From Dehalococcoidia bacterium (GTDB lineage Bacteria > Chloroflexota > Dehalococcoidia > UBA2979), in the NCBI GenBank assembly GCA_964291495.2, contig OZ219872.1:192001-256000 (forward strand): a stretch of 64,000 bases of DNA, read 5' to 3'. Positions 37,769 through 55,010 of this stretch are shown here, piece by piece (position 1 is the stretch's first letter; every line of letters begins with the position of its first letter). The translations under genes were made by a program, and so were the position numbers. The notes below the pieces were generated by a model. That model made no database searches. It was not told the origin of the DNA and worked only from the letters and a program-made list of their open reading frames with translations.

Positions 37769-40700
37769 GTGCTGCCGATTGGACCGCTGGTCGCCCTGGC
37801 GCTGGGCAGTCTCCGCGAGCAGTGGCATATCACGCTCGCGCTGCTGCTCGGCGCGCTGCTGCTGAGCGGCGCGCTCGCGGCGGTCCCGATCACCCACGAG
37901 CGGCTGCGCGACGTCGCGCTGCGCGATTCGCTGGCGACGGCCCCGCCCGGTGCGCTCGAGCTGCGCGTCAGCCGCGACGGGATCGCCCTCGACCGCGTCG
38001 CCTACCTCGACGCGCAGGCCGCCCTCGACCAGGCCGTCGCCGCTGCGCTCGGCGACGCGATCGCCGGGCAGACGCGCACCGGCGCCACGGGTGTGCTCTC
38101 GCTCGCCACCGTGCGCGGGGGCGACGGCCCGTTCCCCGATGCCGTCGACGAGACGCTCGGGCCGGCCGCGCTGCGCTTCCGCTCGGACCTCGAAGCGCAC
38201 GTCACGCTGCTGGAGGGGCGCTTCCCCGCGGCGCTTCCCCGCGGCGTCGGCGATCCGGTACCGGTGCTGGTCGCCCGCGGCAGCGCGCGCGAGGCGGGCC
38301 TGACGCCGGGCCAGGAGCTGGTGCTGATTCCGCGCTCCTCGATCACGGCAAGGTTCCCGATCGTGATCGCCGGCATCGCCGAGCCTCGCGACCCGGCGAG
38401 CCCGTACTGGAGCGGGCGACCCGGCGTGCTCGAGCAGACGACGAGCGGTGCGTTCTCCCTGTTCGTTCCGGAGACGACCTTCTTCGGCGCGCTGCCCGAC
38501 GTGCTGAGCGGGGCGAGCGCCGCGCTCGACTCGACCTACGCCGTGGACCCGGCCGCGATCCAGACCGGCGATGTCTCGGAGATCGCGGCGCGCGTCCGCG
38601 GACTGCCGCGGCAGCTCGCCGCCCTCGGGGGCGCCGAGGTCGAGAGCAGCCTCCCGCACGCGATCGAGAATGCGGCCGACCTGCCGGGCTTCGACCTGCC
38701 TGCGCTCGCGCTGCGCTTCGGGCAGATCGCTGCCGCTCTCGGGGTGCTCGTCTTCGGCGCGGCCTCGTTGCTCGCGCGGCGGCGCGAGCGACTGCGCGCC
38801 GGGCTGCGGCTGACCGGCTCGTCGCGCAACCAGATCGCCGCCGTCGAGCTGATCGCCGCCCTGCCTGCGGCGCTGCTCGCGCTCGTGGCCGGAGCGCCCG
38901 TGGCGGCGCTCGCCCTCGCCGCCCTCGGCCGCCTCGAGGGCTTCGAAGCGCTCGGCAGCTCCTTCGCGGTGACCCTCCAGCGCGACCTGCCGTGGGCGGG
39001 CGCGGGTGCGCTGGCGGTGCTCGTCCTGACCGTCACGGCGTCGGCCGCCGCGAACCGTGGGGTCGGCAGCCGCGGCGCCTGGCTGACGGCGGCGGCCGTG
39101 GGCGGCGGCGCGCTGTTCTGGGCGCTCACGCGCCACGAGACGCTGTTCGAGGGCGCGACGGTGCGCTACGCGCTGCTGCTCGCGCCCGCGGCGCTACTTG
39201 CGCCGGCGACGCTCCTCGCCTGGCGGCTCGTACCGCTGATCGTGCGGCTGCTCGCGCGGCCGGCGGCGTTCGCGCGAGGGATCGCGCTGATCGGCGGCCT
39301 GCGAGGCGTCGCGCGCCAACCGCTCGGGGTCGTCTTCCCGCTCGTGGTGCTTGCGGCTGCCGTCGCGGTGTTGCTCGCGGCGCTGCCCGGCACGCTCGAA
39401 CGCTCGCCCGCCGATCGCGCGGCGCACGCCGCCGGAGGCGATCTGCGCGCGAGCGGCTTCGCCGGCCTCGAGGGTGCGGGCGAGGCGGAGCGCCGGTCGG
39501 CGATCTTCGGCGCGGGCATGGACGCGGCCACACCGCTGGTGCGCGCCAGCGGCGTGCTCAGCCGCGAGGGCGCGAGCATGCCGATCGAGGTGCTCGGCAT
39601 CGACCCGGCCACCTTCCAGACCGTCGCGCACATGCGATCGGACCTCACCGCGGACCCGCTGCCATCCATCCTCTCCGCCCTCAGCGCGAACACGGCCGCC
39701 CTCGAAGGGCGCCCCATCCCGGCGGACACCCGCCAACTCGGCGCATGGGTGAGGCTTACGGACACGAGCGGCGAGGTGCGCATCGCGCTCTCGCTGCGCA
39801 ACGCCAAGGGACGCTACGTGCAGCTGATGCTGGGCGTCACCGACGCCGACCCCGGCCTCGGGCGCTGGAGGTTCCACGCGGCCGATCTTGAGACGCCGCT
39901 CGATCCCGAGGGCGCCGCCATCGCAAGCGCCTCACTCGCCGGGCCGCTCACGCTGCACGGCTACTACCTGCTGCTCGGCGATGCGGCCGCCGCGACGCCC
40001 GGCAGCGCGCTGCTCGGACCGGTGCTCGCCACGCCGGATCCGCCGGCCGCGCCGCGCGACAGCGTCGGCCTCCTCAAGAGCGCCGGCGAGGCGTTCGGGC
40101 AGCGCTCGATCGTTTACGGCATGGTCAGCCTCGAGGACCTCGAACCGATGACGGGCTTCGCCGCCGGCGGAGCGCAGGTGATCGCGCGGAGCACCCGCGC
40201 CGCTCCGCCCGGCATTCGCGGATCGCAGCACCTGGACTGGGGCGTCGCGGATGAGGCGGGCGCGTCCGCGATGCGCGGACTGCGTCAGAAGACGGACGGC
40301 GCGCCCGTGCTCGTCTACGCCTCGCGCGCCGCGGTCGAGGAGCTTGCGATCGAGCCGGGCGAGGAGCTGACGCTCACCGTTGGCGGGGAGGACCTGCGCG
40401 CGCAGCTGGCGGGCGCGCTGGAGGGCTTCCCGACGTTCGCGGCCGGCTCGTCCTTCGTCGTCGCGGGCCTGGACCGGCTGCTGGCCGGGGTCAACGCCTC
40501 TCCACGCGCCGATCCGCTGGCGACGAACGAGGCATGGTTCGCCAGCGGCGCGCCGGCGCGCGCCGCCCCCGAGCTTCGCGGCGCGCCGCTCGAGGCGGGC
40601 ACGGTGATCGAGCGCGAATCGATGCGCGCCGCCCTCGGCAGGGAGCAGGCCGCGGCGCTCGGTTGGCGCACCGTGCTCACGCTCGCCTTCGGCACGTTGG

Positions 40701-41098
40701 TCATCGCGGCGCTTGCGGGCGTGCTGCTCGACATCGCGATGCGCCGGGAGCAGCGCGAAGCCGAGCATGCGGCGATCGACGCGCTTGGCGGCAGGGCAAC
40801 GGGCTGGCTCGGCGGGGTCGCTGGCGAGACGCTGATCCGCCTCGGCGCCGCGGCTGCGGTGGGCGTGGCCGGCGGCATCGTGTTGGCGCGCTGGCTGCTC
40901 GCGATCCTCGCGCGCGACGCGAGCGCGAGGCTGATCGAGCCGCCGCTGCGCTTGCAACTGGAGCCCGCGCCGCTCTGGATCGCCGCCGCCGCGCTCGCGG
41001 CGGGCGTCGTTGTGACCGTGACCACGGCGGCGCTACGGTATCGAGGGCGCGTCGTGCGGCCGGCGGCGGCCCGCGCCGTGCCCGCCGGGGAGGCCTGA
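37769..41098 (+). CDS. Large FtsX-like ABC permease (two permease halves, large extracytoplasmic loops)
   Basis: TM clusters, GL RLTG.SR.Q and ALGG motifs; followed by two ABC ATPases. Confidence 0.75.
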   Translation: MLPIGPLVALALGSLREQWHITLALLLGALLLSGALAAVPITHERLRDVALRDSLATAPPGALELRVSRDGIALDRVAYLDAQAALDQAVAAALGDAIAGQTRTGATGVLSLATVRGGDGPFPDAVDETLGPAALRFRSDLEAHVTLLEGRFPAALPRGVGDPVPVLVARGSAREAGLTPGQELVLIPRSSITARFPIVIAGIAEPRDPASPYWSGRPGVLEQTTSGAFSLFVPETTFFGALPDVLSGASAALDSTYAVDPAAIQTGDVSEIAARVRGLPRQLAALGGAEVESSLPHAIENAADLPGFDLPALALRFGQIAAALGVLVFGAASLLARRRERLRAGLRLTGSSRNQIAAVELIAALPAALLALVAGAPVAALALAALGRLEGFEALGSSFAVTLQRDLPWAGAGALAVLVLTVTASAAANRGVGSRGAWLTAAAVGGGALFWALTRHETLFEGATVRYALLLAPAALLAPATLLAWRLVPLIVRLLARPAAFARGIALIGGLRGVARQPLGVVFPLVVLAAAVAVLLAALPGTLERSPADRAAHAAGGDLRASGFAGLEGAGEAERRSAIFGAGMDAATPLVRASGVLSREGASMPIEVLGIDPATFQTVAHMRSDLTADPLPSILSALSANTAALEGRPIPADTRQLGAWVRLTDTSGEVRIALSLRNAKGRYVQLMLGVTDADPGLGRWRFHAADLETPLDPEGAAIASASLAGPLTLHGYYLLLGDAAAATPGSALLGPVLATPDPPAAPRDSVGLLKSAGEAFGQRSIVYGMVSLEDLEPMTGFAAGGAQVIARSTRAAPPGIRGSQHLDWGVADEAGASAMRGLRQKTDGAPVLVYASRAAVEELAIEPGEELTLTVGGEDLRAQLAGALEGFPTFAAGSSFVVAGLDRLLAGVNASPRADPLATNEAWFASGAPARAAPELRGAPLEAGTVIERESMRAALGREQAAALGWRTVLTLAFGTLVIAALAGVLLDIAMRREQREAEHAAIDALGGRATGWLGGVAGETLIRLGAAAAVGVAGGIVLARWLLAILARDASARLIEPPLRLQLEPAPLWIAAAALAAGVVVTVTTAALRYRGRVVRPAAARAVPAGEA

Positions 41099-48911: not shown

Positions 48912-49250
48912 ATGGCCTACGACGAGACGCTCGCCGAGCGCGTGCGCGAGTTGCTTGCCGACCTCGTCGACCCCGCCGAGGTGCGCGAGCAGCGCATGTT
49001 CGGCGGCGTCGCCTTCATGGTGCGCGGCAACATGTGCTGCGGCGTGCACGGCTCCGAGCTGATCGCGCGGCTCTCTCCCGAGGACGGCGAGAGCGCCCTC
49101 GGCGAGCCGTTCGTGCGGCCGATGGACATGACCGGTCGCCCGATGCGCGGCTGGCTGTTCGTTGGCCCGGCGACGGACTTCGAAGAGGAGCGGCTCGAGG
49201 GCTGGCTGCGCCGTTGCCTCGACCACTGCCTCACGCTCAAGCCGAAGTAG
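48912..49250 (+). CDS. TfoX/Sxy N-terminal domain protein
   Basis: MAYDE.LAERVR, MFGG.AFMV.GNM.CGV, M.MTGRPMRGW. Confidence 0.9.
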   Translation: MAYDETLAERVRELLADLVDPAEVREQRMFGGVAFMVRGNMCCGVHGSELIARLSPEDGESALGEPFVRPMDMTGRPMRGWLFVGPATDFEEERLEGWLRRCLDHCLTLKPK

Positions 49251-49403
49251 CGCCGCGCACGGACCCGCCCTCGATACGTCTGCGTGTTGTGAGCAGCGCC
49301 CGCTCCGGTGTAGAACGGGAGGGAGCGGCAGGGGTGCGCCGGCAGGGCGCACGGCGCGCAGCCGCGCCCCCGCACGCCGCGCCAGCAGCGAAGGAGCAGC
49401 CCG

Positions 49404-51101
49404 ATGACCACAGTCGCCGCCGCCACCACGCGGGTCTACGACCCGACCGGCCACCCGCGCATCATCCCCGTCCAGGCGGCCCCGCGGCCGCAGAGCCTCG
49501 AGGGCCTGCGACCGGGCATCCTGACGAACCGCAAGATGAATGCCCGCGCCCTGCTGGAGGCGATGATGGGCGAGGTCGCCGGCGCGGTCTCGCTCGCCTT
49601 GGCGCCGGTCGTGGAGAGCAAGCCGTCCAACGGCCCGCCCATCCAGCGCATCGTCGACAGCATGAAGGAGAACGCCGACTTCGCCTTAGTCGGGACAAGC
49701 GACTGAGGGTCCTGCACCGCGTGGAGTGTCCACGCCGCCATCGTCCTCGAAGAGCTCGGTATCCCGACCGTCAACGTCACCACGCCCGCCTTCGTCGATC
49801 TGCTGCACCTGGAGGCTGAGCAGCGCGGCCTGAAGGATCTGCGCTACGTCGTCGTCTCGCACCCGATCGGCGGGCTGCACGCCGACGCGATGGGCCCGAA
49901 GGCGCAGGCCGTGACCGGCGAGCTGATCGAGGCCTTCACCAAGCCCTACGCCAGCGATAACGGCGCCAGCACTAACGGCGCGGGGGGCGCCGTGGTAGCG
50001 ACCGACCTCGGGCGCGAGAGCGTGATGGTCGAGCTGCCCGCCGACGAGCAGGCGCTGCGTCGCGAGTTCGCGCGCCGCACCTGGTCCGACGGCCTGCCCG
50101 TGATCGCGCCCACCGAGGAGCGCGTCGAGGCGATGCTCGAGTACTGCGACCGCGACCCGCTCGAGGTGCTCGGCGTGATCGCGCCGCGGCGCGGCGAGGC
50201 GACGGTCCAGGCGACCGCCGTCTGCGCCGTGATGGCCGGCTGCGAGCCTCGGATGTTCCCGGCGCTCGTCGCCGCCGTGCAGGGCATCGGCCGCGAGGAG
50301 TTCAACGTCAGCGGCGTCAACGCCACGACGCACCCGAACACGGTGATGATGCTGCTCAACGGCCCGATCGCCCGCGAGATCGGCGCGCACGGCGGGATGG
50401 GCTGCTTCGGCCCGACCTTCGAGACCAACGCCACCCTCGGGCGCGCGCTGCGCTTGGTGCAGCTCAACATCGGCGGGGCCACGCCCGGCCTCGGCGACCG
50501 CGCCACGCAGGGGACGCCCGCCAAGTTCACCTTCTGCTTCGCGGAGAACGAGGCAGAGAGCCCCTGGGCGCCGTTCCAGACCACGCGCGGATTCAGCGCC
50601 GAGGAGAGCACCGTCACGGTGTATGCCTGCGAGGCGCCGCACAATATCGAGGACCACGGCAGCAACACCGGCCTCGGCATCATGCAGACGGTCGTCGGCT
50701 CGATGGGCCAGGCGGGCAGCAACAACATCCTCGCGAGGGGTGACACGCTGCTGGCGCTGACGCCGGAGCACGCCGCGGTGCTCGCCGGCGACGGCTGGGA
50801 CCGCGAGAAGATGCGGGAGCACATCTTCGAGCTGGCCCGCTTCCCCGCCGACCACCTGTCCGTCGAGTTCATCGACCACATCAACGAGCGCATCGATCCG
50901 GACACACCGACGTTCCTGAAGGACTCGCGGCTGCCGATCGCGGCGAACCGCGAGTCGATTCACATCATCGTCGCGGGCGGTCCGGGCAAGCACTCGTCGT
51001 GGATGCCCGGCTTCGGCGACATGTCGCTCCCGCAGACGGTGGCGATCACCAACCGCGACGGCGAGCCCGTGCGCAGCATCGAGGAGCTGCGGCGGGGCTA
51101 G
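49404..51101 (+). CDS. UGSC-family selenoprotein fused to a conserved uncharacterised domain (565 aa, Sec at codon 101)
   Basis: In-frame TGA 49704-49706 in GTSD-U-GSCT; frame stays open into the 49890 ORF; SECIS-like hairpin follows. Confidence 0.85.
49704..49735 (+). promoter_or_regulatory. Bacterial SECIS-like element
   Basis: TGA, 12 nt, then perfect stem GCGTGGA-GTG-TCCACGC with G in the apical loop. Confidence 0.7.
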
Positions 51102-51141
51102 CCGCAACGGGCGCGGGCGCGCCCCCCGGGACGGAGGCCGC

Positions 51142-52221
51142 ATGACCGACGGCGGCGCACGGGCCGAGGCCGAACGTGCCGCCGTCGCCGCCGTCGAGGC
51201 CTTCTACGAGGCCTGGAGCGCGGGCGATCTCGGGGCGCTGCGCGGGACGATGAACTACCCGCACGTCTCGCTCTTCCCCGGCCACGTCGAGGTGCGCGCC
51301 ACGCCCGAGGAGTTCGAGTCGCCGTTCGAGCGCCTGCGCGAGCTGCAGGCCTGGCACAGCAGCAGCCTCGACCGCATCCACCCGATCTGGACGCGCGACG
51401 ACAAGGTCTGCCTGAGCGTCGACTGGAGCCGCTACGGCGAGGACGGCGCGCGCTACCTGTCCGGCAACATCGTCTACATCGTCACCAACGTGGACGGCCA
51501 CTGGGGCATCCAGTTCCGCGCCCGCAGCGAGCCGCGCGACCGCGACGGGCCGCCAGCGGACGCGGCCCAACGCCCTCGAAACACGCTGCTGACGCTGGTG
51601 CCGGAGGAGATCGAGGAGTTCGCGCGCAGGCACACCACCCCGCTGCCGCCGCACCTCGAGGAGCTCTCCCGCTTCACGCTCGAGGAGATTGAGTACGGGC
51701 TGATGCTCTCCGGCCCGATCGAGGGCGGGCTGCTGCAACTGCTCGCCTGGGCCACGAAGGCGAGACGCATCCTCGAGGTCGGCTGCTTCACCGGATTCAG
51801 CGCCCAGATGATGGCCGCCGCCCTGCCGGACGACGGCCGGCTCATCACCTGCGAGATCGACCCGGAGACCGCGGAGATCGCCCGCAAGTACGCCGACGAC
51901 GGACCGGACGGCCACAAGATCGAGATCCGCGTCGGCCCCGCCGCCGAGACTCTCGAGACCCTCGAGGGCCCCTTCGACCTCGTCTTCATCGACGCCGACA
52001 AGGATCCGTACATCGACTACTACGAGGCGGCGCTGGAGCTGCTCGCCGACGACGGGATCATCGCGGTCGACAACGTGCTGTTGAACGGCCGCGTGGTGAA
52101 TTCGGAGTCGAAGTCGGGCCAGCGCATGGCCGCCTTCAACGCGCACGTCGCCGCGGACCCGCGCGTGAAGCAGGTGCTGCTCACGATCCGCGACGGCGTG
52201 ATGCTGATCCGAAAGGCCTGA
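51142..52221 (+). CDS. NTF2-like domain fused to class I SAM-dependent O-methyltransferase
   Basis: N-terminal NYPH..W NTF2-like part; RILEVGCFTGFSA, FDLVFIDADK..Y, DNVL..G, RDG. Confidence 0.85.
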   Translation: MTDGGARAEAERAAVAAVEAFYEAWSAGDLGALRGTMNYPHVSLFPGHVEVRATPEEFESPFERLRELQAWHSSSLDRIHPIWTRDDKVCLSVDWSRYGEDGARYLSGNIVYIVTNVDGHWGIQFRARSEPRDRDGPPADAAQRPRNTLLTLVPEEIEEFARRHTTPLPPHLEELSRFTLEEIEYGLMLSGPIEGGLLQLLAWATKARRILEVGCFTGFSAQMMAAALPDDGRLITCEIDPETAEIARKYADDGPDGHKIEIRVGPAAETLETLEGPFDLVFIDADKDPYIDYYEAALELLADDGIIAVDNVLLNGRVVNSESKSGQRMAAFNAHVAADPRVKQVLLTIRDGVMLIRKA

Positions 52222-53843: not shown

Positions 53844-55010
53844 ATGGAGATGCCCTCGGCGTACACGAAGGGCTACGAATCGGCCCGGGCGCTCGATCCT
53901 GAGCGGGCGCGGAACTACGTCGCGCATACGGTCATCGGCGACCCCGCAGCCGACGAGCTGATCGAGGAGCTCGCCCCCCTCGGGCAGGAGGAGTTGGGCA
54001 GGCTACTCCAGATCGGGATGGACGGCGACGAGCGCGCGCTGCGGGAGGCGCCTGCCGTCCTGCGAGAGTTCTTCGAATCCTGCGCGGCTCCCCCCGACTG
54101 GCTCGACCTGCCCGGGCACGTTCCGGGCATCCGCATGTTTCACCGCAACTCGGCGCTGGTGCTGGGGGCGATGGTGGCCGGCACGCTGGTGGAGGGATTC
54201 GCGACGAATATCGCCAAGTCCTTCTTCATCACGGGAAAGATCCGTGACCAGGGCATTCGACGGCTGAAACAGAACAACCGCCACATGATCGAGATCTTCC
54301 TCCCCGGCGGCCTCGAACGAGACGGCGATGGATGGAAGCTGTCCGTTCGCATCCGGCTGGTCCATGCGATGGTCAGGCGCCTGCTGGACGCCTCCGACGA
54401 CTGGGACCACGAAGCCTGGGGCACCCCCGTCAGCGCCGCCCACACGGGCTTCGCGATCACCGCGTTCTCGGCGAGATCCCTGAAACACCTGAAGAGCCTG
54501 GGAGCCCGGTTCACCGACGAAGAGCGCGCGAGCTTCATGCAGGTCTGGCGCTACTCCGGTCATCTGATGGGCATCCCCGAAACGATCCTGTTCCGCGACG
54601 AACCGGATGCCCTGGAGACATTCAGGATTGGCCTTGCGTGCGAGCCGGATGCCGAGCTGGAGTCCATCTCTCTGTCAAACGCGCTGGTCAACTCCTCGCC
54701 GCTGATTGCGGGGGTGACCGAACCGGCCGAGCGCCGGAAGCTGGCTCACTACGTGTTCCGGGTCTCCCGCGCGCTCATCGGACGGCAGGTCGCCGACCAG
54801 CTCATGTTTCCTCGCTACCCGACGTTCGGGGTGCTCTGGTGGTTCCGCATGCAGAACCGGTACGACGGCCTCATGAACAGGCTCTACAAGAGTCGCGCCC
54901 GGAAGAACAACAAGCTGAGCGCCATGCTCGATGTCTCGATGGTCGACGAAGCGGGGATCAGCTACAGGCTGCCGGACCACGTCTATGCAGAAGAGTCCTC
55001 CTGGTGGTGA
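53844..55010 (+). CDS. Oxygenase MpaB/DUF2236 family protein
   Basis: GDP.AD, PP.W.D, RIRLVHAMVR, WG.PVS, WRY.GHLMGIP. Confidence 0.85.
   Translation: MEMPSAYTKGYESARALDPERARNYVAHTVIGDPAADELIEELAPLGQEELGRLLQIGMDGDERALREAPAVLREFFESCAAPPDWLDLPGHVPGIRMFHRNSALVLGAMVAGTLVEGFATNIAKSFFITGKIRDQGIRRLKQNNRHMIEIFLPGGLERDGDGWKLSVRIRLVHAMVRRLLDASDDWDHEAWGTPVSAAHTGFAITAFSARSLKHLKSLGARFTDEERASFMQVWRYSGHLMGIPETILFRDEPDALETFRIGLACEPDAELESISLSNALVNSSPLIAGVTEPAERRKLAHYVFRVSRALIGRQVADQLMFPRYPTFGVLWWFRMQNRYDGLMNRLYKSRARKNNKLSAMLDVSMVDEAGISYRLPDHVYAEESSWW

Follow-up and report, generated by a model that had tools for sequence, protein, structure and literature searches.

The window analysed here is a 64,000-nucleotide stretch of DNA from a Dehalococcoidia bacterium, and its subject is a gene at positions 49404-51101 that we read as a fused selenoprotein. 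The window's list of open reading frames (ORFs) gives two entries at this place, 49404-49706 and 49890-51101, which share a frame and have a TGA between them. When this TGA is translated as selenocysteine (Sec, U), positions 49404-51101 yield a protein of 565 residues in which U101 is the only step that departs from genetic code table 11. The N-terminal part is a domain of the UGSC family and the C-terminal part a larger domain of an unnamed family, hereafter the partner domain, with a low-complexity linker between the two (Table 1). The context of the Sec residue is ...ALVGTSD-U-GSCTAWSVHAAIVLEELGIPTV...VVVSHPIGG..., with ALVGTSD-U-GSCTAWSV immediately around the codon, and the same translation contains the C-terminal motifs WSDGLPVIAPTEERV, NATTHP, NATLGRALRL, FCFAENE and VAGGPGKH. 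A Shine-Dalgarno-like GAAGGAG ends 8 nt upstream of the ATG at 49404. The source genome comprises 3.08 Mb in 8 contigs with about 71% G+C, and G+C at third codon positions (GC3) is 0.95 ahead of the TGA, 0.90 over the 61 codons that follow it and 0.96 further on. Judged by comparative sequence evidence, 49404-51101 is almost certainly a genuine selenoprotein gene, with two domains in one frame, which ordinary gene callers split in two.

Table 1. Features at the selenoprotein locus, in window positions (aa, amino acid residues; SECIS, selenocysteine insertion sequence; pLDDT, predicted local distance difference test).
Feature	Position	Strand	Description or basis
Whole predicted selenoprotein gene	49404..51101	+	565 codons and TAG stop; single in-frame TGA as Sec
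UGSC domain, aa 11-179	49434..49940	+	PF24696
UGA codon 101	49704..49706	+	First residue of the U-G-S-C redox motif (U101, C104); TGA=U translation and comparison with homologs
Candidate bacterial SECIS-type hairpin	49719..49735	+	7-bp stem GCGUGGA/UCCACGC, loop GUG; fold and comparison
Low-complexity linker, about aa 180-204	49941..50015	+	pLDDT of the full-length model drops to about 53; segment 191-195 below 50
Partner ('C') domain, about aa 205-565	50016..51098	+	Unnamed family; conserved motifs
Downstream gene	51142-52221		Weak SnoaL_2 region and O-methyltransferase; Methyltransf_3 E 1.3e-55

The match to the Pfam family UGSC (PF24696; E 1.6e-39, 136.2 bits against a cut-off of 25) covers profile positions 2-171 of 172 and runs unbroken across the TGA and beyond the internal ATG at 49890, which is codon 163. 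The source genome encodes the machinery for Sec insertion: a tRNA-SeC was found, as were selA (523.6 bits), selB (301.7 bits) and selD (368.3 bits), all above their curated cut-offs. The selD gene (G000:C5:1608812-1609747, outside the window) itself holds one in-frame TGA, and selenophosphate synthetase is probably a selenoprotein in its own right. TGA also serves as the stop of high-GC3 ORFs elsewhere in the window, such as 37769-41098 and 51142-52221, and this codon is therefore not recoded throughout the genome.

The protein was found in 23 of the 41 related genomes searched for orthologs, and in 11 genomes of the genus, the source included, the ortholog is full-length with exactly one internal TGA and the same architecture (93-100% identity; 93-97% protein identity to the window protein for the ten others). 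Codons were compared in ten of these 11 genes, the gene of locus L022 being excluded for an indel. Between the TGA and the ATG, 21 of the 61 codons vary, 18 of them by synonymous changes only, and the variable sites are distributed 5/1/18 over the three codon positions; the flanks behave similarly, with 34 of 47 and 141 of 188 variable codons synonymous. Beyond the genus, the U column is occupied by Cys in 18 of 25 full-length database homologs, a set that is free of stop codons by construction, and by Leu, Ser, Ile or Gly in the others. We also compared 80 loci that encode the partner domain, from many phyla and including members of the Dehalococcoidia, Rokubacteria, Binatia, Alpha- and Betaproteobacteria and some archaea; they were retrieved with a pattern that included the AGC motif of the partner domain, and UGSC domains were then located in them by hidden Markov model (HMM). 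Among the 86 UGSC domains found, the codon in the U column is TGA in 76, TGC or TGT in five, TAG in one and TCG or GGC in two, and the column is uncovered in two.

Some members of the family stand out. A database protein of 565 aa that is 81% identical to the window protein (P0009) has Leu at the Sec position (TANLGSC). On a contig labelled Blastococcus sp. (L072:4465-4965), a UGSC gene carries TAG in the Sec column with the hairpin TCGTGGA-GTC-TCCACGA intact, which may be a pseudogene, an error or something else. A contig binned as thaumarchaeal (L100, labelled Candidatus Nitrosocosmicus sp.) bears a TGA-type UGSC gene together with a bacterial-type hairpin; its motif SADUGSCTSWS is that of the loci labelled Rokubacteria, and mis-binning is possible. 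In a Chloroflexi metagenome-assembled genome (MAG), three fused UGSC-partner genes lie in tandem, each with a TGA (L049:4374-8658).

The hairpin begins 12 nt past the UGA and overlaps the codons for A-W-S-V-H-A; counted with the U of UGA as 1, it extends from +16 to +32 with the loop G23-U24-G25, and G23 and U24 are loop positions of the Escherichia coli fdhF SECIS as well. For comparison, 77 distinct Sec-type sequences were aligned after removal of a spurious motif match (L035:1419-1463), and the four members of a sub-family whose hairpin is shifted were retained and scored as unpaired. The stem positions pair in 93.9% of cells, as against 17.8-49.9% for slid partners, and five of the seven stem pairs show changes on both sides (in seven sequences, for instance, a G-C pair has become C-G); the covariation score was reached by none of 500 shuffles. 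It is this comparison, and not the stability of the hairpin itself, that makes the structure significant. Sec forms share the consensus UCGUGGA-GUN-UCCACGA at a constant distance from the UGA, with a GUN loop in 73 of 76 and AGT as the Ser codon of the loop in 62 of 76 despite high G+C. As for Cys forms, only 1-3 of the seven stem positions pair in two AT-rich archaeal ones, and three bacterial ones keep 5-6 stem positions with a G-U loop in none of the three.

If the TGA were a true stop, the locus would consist of a decayed 100-codon UGSC fragment followed by an independent partner gene starting at the ATG at 49890. This is what table-11 gene calling returns, with exactly two ORFs, and what most database entries of relatives suggest, which begin past the TGA as 403-aa forms; the hairpin, taken by itself, is no more stable than chance. 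However, a profile that continues across both the TGA and codon 163, 61 intervening codons that evolve as coding sequence, a TGA that is fixed in 11 genomes of the genus and recurs in the same column of 76 of 86 domains from many phyla, Cys in its place in homologs and a complete Sec machinery in the genome leave this reading hardly credible. Sec is thus very probably inserted at UGA-101, a view that draws its strength from very strong comparative evidence. An earlier note, made from the letters of this DNA, had proposed a selenoprotein hidden by an in-frame TGA and had pointed to a 7-bp hairpin with a G-containing loop 12 nt after it; both are borne out by the 565-residue read-through and its comparison, and the Sec genes, the U column of homologs and the 61 codons, where the note had suggested looking, all speak for its proposal.

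The partner domain belongs to a large family that has escaped naming. A HMMER search with the full-length protein against 1.84 billion representatives returned 5253 relatives at E<=1e-3 and 1120 at E<=1e-30, and a word-indexed search returned 4091 relatives among 8000 scored candidates; by contrast, no Pfam family matches the partner domain at E<=1 and no NCBIfam family at E<=0.1. Its motifs are DGLPxxPPT, NAVMAGC(280)xP, NATTHP, RANATIGRA, GxPxK, CxAENE, SPW, PEHA and VAGGxGxHS. Across 150 representatives with 25-85% identity to the partner domain of the window protein, about 38 positions over 330 residues are nearly invariant, among them D229, G230, P232, P236, A278, G279, C280, N342, G346, R347, E381, P387 and W388. 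Cys280 is kept in 90% or more of these representatives. Four of 103 partner domains from the 80 loci are without it and have an alternative Cys five residues upstream, on the preceding turn of the same helix, and Sec occurs in this column in none of the 103.

Structure prediction was confident for the full-length protein (AlphaFold2, pLDDT 94.9, predicted template modelling (pTM) score 0.94) and for the partner domain alone (pLDDT 96.4). A profile of the 150 sequences matched no PDB sequence at E<=10, and Foldseek gave no PDB match at E<=1e-3 for either the full-length model or the partner domain alone. The top Foldseek rows, class I fumarate hydratases, align poorly (TM-score 0.15-0.26, root-mean-square deviation (rmsd) 16-19 A) and were rejected. 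In VIA-align the partner domain reached Z>=8 with none of 48,161 chains, a structure search that hardly probes its first half; the best match, chorismate mutase 1fnk (Z 6.3, 90 residues, rmsd 3.2), lies below the stated noise level and was likewise set aside, being limited to a YjgF/chorismate-mutase-like sub-domain at model residues of about 187-338. The ESM Atlas returned only clusters of 'hypothetical protein', and no named cluster once UGSC clusters were excluded. We found no relative of solved structure for the partner domain and do not claim a new fold.

The fusion that the earlier note had described joins two functionally coupled parts, as the genomic distribution of the domains indicates. 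Of the 80 partner-encoding loci, 77 contain a UGSC domain, and in two of the three exceptions the partner domain lies at a contig end. The arrangement varies: 22 of the 86 UGSC domains are fused in frame, 52 are encoded by a separate gene directly upstream and seven by one directly downstream, four lie farther away on the same strand and one on the opposite strand. The source genome itself has six UGSC domains, five of them with TGA, and seven partner domains, and all six UGSC domains are fused or adjacent to a partner domain.

A natural split pair of the Cys type (locus L099, labelled as a Sphingomonas sp. MAG) was used for complex prediction in three runs with three controls. The pair scored 0.83 and the best control 0.00; in the calibration of the tool this mark is reached by 58 of 80 solved complexes and two of 110 mismatched pairs, a calibration that is roughly valid here, where our own alignments were supplied. 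At least 83% of contacts are shared between the runs, and the pLDDT of the partner is at least 84. In the predicted interface, UGSC residues 94-96 and 98-100, which include the C/U-G-S-C motif, contact partner residues 35-38, 73-74, 77 and 107-110. The latter correspond in the numbering of the window protein to about 235-238, 273-277 and 307-310 and flank DGLPxxPPT, Cys280 and TTHP. No similar solved complex was among the fold-search results.

In the full-length model the UGSC domain is a three-layer alpha/beta structure in which the Sec residue starts helix 102-117 right after strand 93-99. When the 565-residue model was searched with VIA-align, residues 30-188 matched many unrelated chains of Rossmann-, flavodoxin- or receiver-like type at Z 8.6-10.1; none of the 50 matches listed is a thioredoxin, and the Foldseek rows for this part are flavodoxin-like. 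At the level of sequence, the domain leads to the selenoprotein B family (GrdB, GrdF and GrdH of the glycine, sarcosine and betaine reductases, and PrdB of D-proline reductase). The Pfam family GRDB (PF07355) was searched in 151 genomes of the same class and has matches in 55. In 12 full-length genes of this family, from 12 genomes of the class (L119-L130), the frame runs past the Pfam model into ...ILTSTUGT.TR.GA..ELE.AG.P...PHP.G with an in-frame TGA. The Pfam matches of these genes stop exactly ahead of the TGA, so that these are Sec forms whose Sec-bearing tail lies outside the model. Comparison of 76 UGSC domains with this tail region by hhalign gave a probability of 95.2% (E 2.7e-8, 89 columns) and placed U opposite U, and we conclude from this match that the UGSC Sec module is a distant relative of the Sec module of GrdB and PrdB. 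PF07355 itself matches neither the window protein at E<=0.1 nor anything in the source genome at E<=10, and the control genomes are likewise without a match.

The likeness comprises the second half of the UGSC domain (a strand, U-G-S/T, a helix, a strand with E..G-I/L-P, and PHP-x-G) and extends to a substrate-handling partner, separate or fused, with which UGSC, too, works. Both are presumably re-reduced by thiol systems. The Grd and Prd enzymes are those of anaerobic amino-acid fermenters, whereas the UGSC module is found in the bacterial and archaeal lineages named above; the partner of the Grd and Prd enzymes is a proprotein of the GrdE/PrdA type (Pfam Gly_reductase). The two differ in that only the region past the end of the Pfam GRDB model is related to UGSC.

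The surroundings of the module contribute a candidate electron donor. Immediate neighbours were defined by a simple ORF rule as the 143 ORFs that flank the module in the 80 loci, with a second tier of 140 ORFs. The commonest Pfam families among the former are TctC (19 of 143) and Pyr_redox_2 (10 of 143); in the second tier TctC leads with five of 140, and the others are diverse. All ten Pyr_redox_2 neighbours form one BLAST cluster, in which eight are full-size (about 290-345 aa), the ninth is cut by a contig end and the last is a fragment of 109 aa. A CAxC motif is shared by the first nine and, in the eight complete proteins, lies about 120 residues after the GxGxxG that binds flavin adenine dinucleotide (FAD), which is also the spacing in low-Mr thioredoxin reductase (TrxR). 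Nine of the ten are upstream of the module, and most are in loci labelled alphaproteobacterial. A second link to thioredoxin is a paralog in the source genome (L035:4414-5982, G000:C2:103913-105481) in which the partner domain is fused at its N-terminal end to a CPTC thioredoxin-fold domain (AhpC-TSA, E 5e-7) and the next gene is a UGSC gene of the Sec type; this arrangement is the copy of the module that most searched genomes of the genus have. In the closest homolog outside the genus, a gene for a small redox protein of the Rdx family (SelW-like) lies directly upstream of the UGSC gene (L039:4181-4429). Genes around the paralogs of the source genome encode luciferase-like monooxygenases, enoyl-CoA hydratases, thiolase-like proteins, a CoA-transferase, short-chain dehydrogenases/reductases (SDRs) and SnoaL-like proteins.

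We put the probability at roughly 0.7 that the protein is a two-domain selenoenzyme, probably a thioredoxin-driven reductase, with its Sec module docked on the partner domain. Of this picture, the gene structure, its conservation, the coupling of the two domains and the remote homology are observed, the docking is predicted, and the chemistry and the substrate are inferred. During translation, the hairpin after UGA-101 would recruit SelB and Sec-tRNA, and the ribosome would insert Sec and continue into the remainder of UGSC and the partner domain. U101-x-x-C104 would provide a selenol/thiol pair at the start of a helix, and the UGSC domain would dock on the partner with the U-G-S motif facing conserved surfaces beside Cys280 and the NATTHP loop, as modelled for the split pair. 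The partner domain would most likely bind and activate a small substrate that the selenol attacks or reduces, ending as a selenenyl-sulfide with C104 or C280, which thioredoxin or a TrxR-type system would re-reduce. Overall, this would amount to a thiol-driven reduction and possibly to a reductive cleavage; such chemistry would fit the TrxR-like genes and the fused CxxC thioredoxin-fold domain. As to the substrate, the frequent neighbours of the TctC type in Betaproteobacteria, which bind carboxylates, suggest a small organic acid, and the seven partner paralogs of the source genome suggest that the family has diversified over substrates. A bolder and less likely idea is that the invariant Gly-Cys280 might be a self-processing site that yields a carbonyl cofactor as in GrdE and PrdA.

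Thioredoxin-dependent reductases with fused redox domains, of which Msr-thioredoxin fusions are an example, resemble the module in pairing a small dithiol or selenol-thiol domain, by fusion or adjacency, with a catalytic domain that has a conserved Cys, and in some lineages a low-Mr TrxR-like CAxC flavoprotein is encoded beside the module. They differ in that neither UGSC nor the partner domain showed a relation to them in the sequence and fold searches. Another division of labour is conceivable, in which UGSC would be a dedicated thioredoxin-like electron carrier and nothing more, its U101 and C104 regenerating an oxidised Cys280 in a self-contained thiol-dependent partner enzyme, for example a reductase or detoxifier of oxidised sulfur, selenium or metalloid species or of peroxide, without selenoether chemistry of the Grd/Prd kind. 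A canonical CPTC domain can occupy the same N-terminal position on the partner domain as UGSC does, TrxR-like genes adjoin the module, and Cys280 is nearly invariant, with a substitute Cys one turn upstream in the four domains that are without it; the selenoprotein literature groups UGSC with thiol oxidoreductases (PMC2398784, PMC9312934). Against this, the UGSC gene is kept in L035 beside the thioredoxin-fused partner, so that thioredoxin does not replace UGSC there, UGSC as modelled does not look like a thioredoxin and has its detectable homology in the Sec module of GrdB and PrdB, and a genome of 3 Mb with seven partner paralogs is more easily explained by a diversity of substrates than by one role in detoxification. 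We regard a pure carrier as unlikely and prefer a reductase in which the Sec module acts on a partner-bound substrate.

Several observations weigh against a two-domain selenoenzyme of this kind. The window protein scores 98.2 bits with NCBIfam NF041046, under the equivalog cut-off of 125; this model is 147 positions long and the window copy is fused, and by the NCBI rule the protein is a family relative and not an equivalog. The predicted fold of the hairpin region (67 nt) has z = -0.37, with 61 of 200 shuffles at least as stable, the hairpin overlaps a conserved peptide, SWSVHD, which is in itself a constraint on the sequence, and no SECIS family of Rfam matched positions 49000-51500 at E<=10, where three irrelevant sub-threshold matches were returned. 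Seven of the 25 full-length homologs have neither Cys nor Sec in the U column, so that some family members function without this redox centre or are inactive. The count for Cys280, 99 of 103 domains in 80 loci, is biased by the retrieval pattern, because that pattern included the AGC motif. Only about one in eight loci has a TrxR-like neighbour, and Betaproteobacteria are very rich in TctC genes in any case. Finally, a relationship of the partner domain to the body of GRDB was rejected (hhalign probability 0.3%), and the partner has no Pfam match to Gly_reductase (GrdE/PrdA) at E<=1, a search made by Pfam model without direct profile comparison with GrdE/PrdA. As the partner has no detectable relation to the GrdE/PrdA partners or to the GRDB body, the Grd/Prd analogy extends to the Sec module only.

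The partner domain could also be no enzyme at all and serve as a structural or regulatory scaffold, for instance a redox sensor set by the selenoprotein, given that no fold or family assignment lends it a catalytic precedent. The roughly 38 nearly invariant positions, which include the polar residues D, C, N, R and E as well as W, the many partner paralogs per genome and the setting among catabolic genes (luciferase-like monooxygenases, CoA-transferases, enoyl-CoA hydratases and TctC binding proteins) make such a role very improbable, and an enzymatic partner remains our preferred reading.

The earlier note had further suggested that the selenoprotein works with the gene directly downstream, which it took for an NTF2-methyltransferase. 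This is not upheld: by tblastn the downstream gene follows the selenoprotein gene in loci of the same genus only (L013-L023) and was found in none of the 80 distant loci nor in the other loci compared, and we reject this SnoaL-O-methyltransferase as a functional partner, confined as it is to the genus. Within the genus the SnoaL-like/O-methyltransferase fusion seems to be decaying or variable, with only residues 1-144 matched in L014 and three pieces in L022. The TfoX_N gene upstream is, again by tblastn, likewise confined to the genus. Elsewhere in the window, 53844-55010 encodes an MpaB/Lcp (rubber oxygenase-like) catalytic domain (PF09995, E 2.3e-17).

Neither the UGSC family nor its fusion is new, and the window gene is a further fused member. 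UGSC-containing proteins were named in 2007 as a predicted selenoprotein without known function (Zhang & Gladyshev), and a 2008 survey of the Global Ocean Sampling metagenome counted UGSC among the major families, with 255 Sec and 21 Cys forms (PMC2398784). According to that paper, a fusion to a conserved unknown domain, UGSC/Unknown_1, had been seen in ocean metagenomes, and a 'likely Trx-like fold' was suggested for UGSC (PMC2398784). The family still appears with no function attached in reviews published in 2022 and 2026 (PMC9312934, PMC13188914), and the accessible portions of the literature that names the family between 2007 and 2026 assign it none. The earlier note was right to call UGSC a computationally predicted family (PF24696; PMC2398784, PMC9312934, PMC13188914) with no assigned reaction; in ranking the locus as an undescribed system it went too far, as the fusion to a conserved unknown domain had been reported in 2008 (PMC2398784).

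The window protein and the UGSC/Unknown_1 system, as the available text presents it, share the Pfam domain, the U-G-S-C motif, the alternation of Sec and Cys at one column and the fusion to a conserved unknown domain, and Unknown_1 is likely, though not confirmed, to be the present partner domain. They differ in three respects: the window protein lies below the NF041046 cut-off for equivalogs, its predicted fold is a Rossmann/flavodoxin-like three-layer alpha/beta structure and not the thioredoxin-like one proposed in 2008, and the near-obligate pairing (77 of 80 loci) and the links to TrxR and thioredoxin do not appear in the accessible part of that account.

Collectively, our data raise the possibility, which we put forward tentatively and at somewhat less than even odds, that UGSC and its partner domain constitute a widespread and unrecognised class of Sec-dependent substrate reductases. 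Such enzymes would join a Sec module that glycine and proline reductases also have to a catalytic subunit that has no solved fold relative, would be driven by TrxR-like flavoproteins and, in aerobic bacteria of water and soil, would have diversified into many paralogs that act on small organic acids. Standard gene calling splits genes of this kind, so that databases lack both the selenoprotein and the partner's true N-terminus. In aquatic metagenomes, few predicted selenoprotein families are as abundant as UGSC. The module described here gives a handle on its function, with a fixed partner, a predicted interface at the selenol and a likely electron donor, and the natural Cys versions are expressible without Sec machinery.

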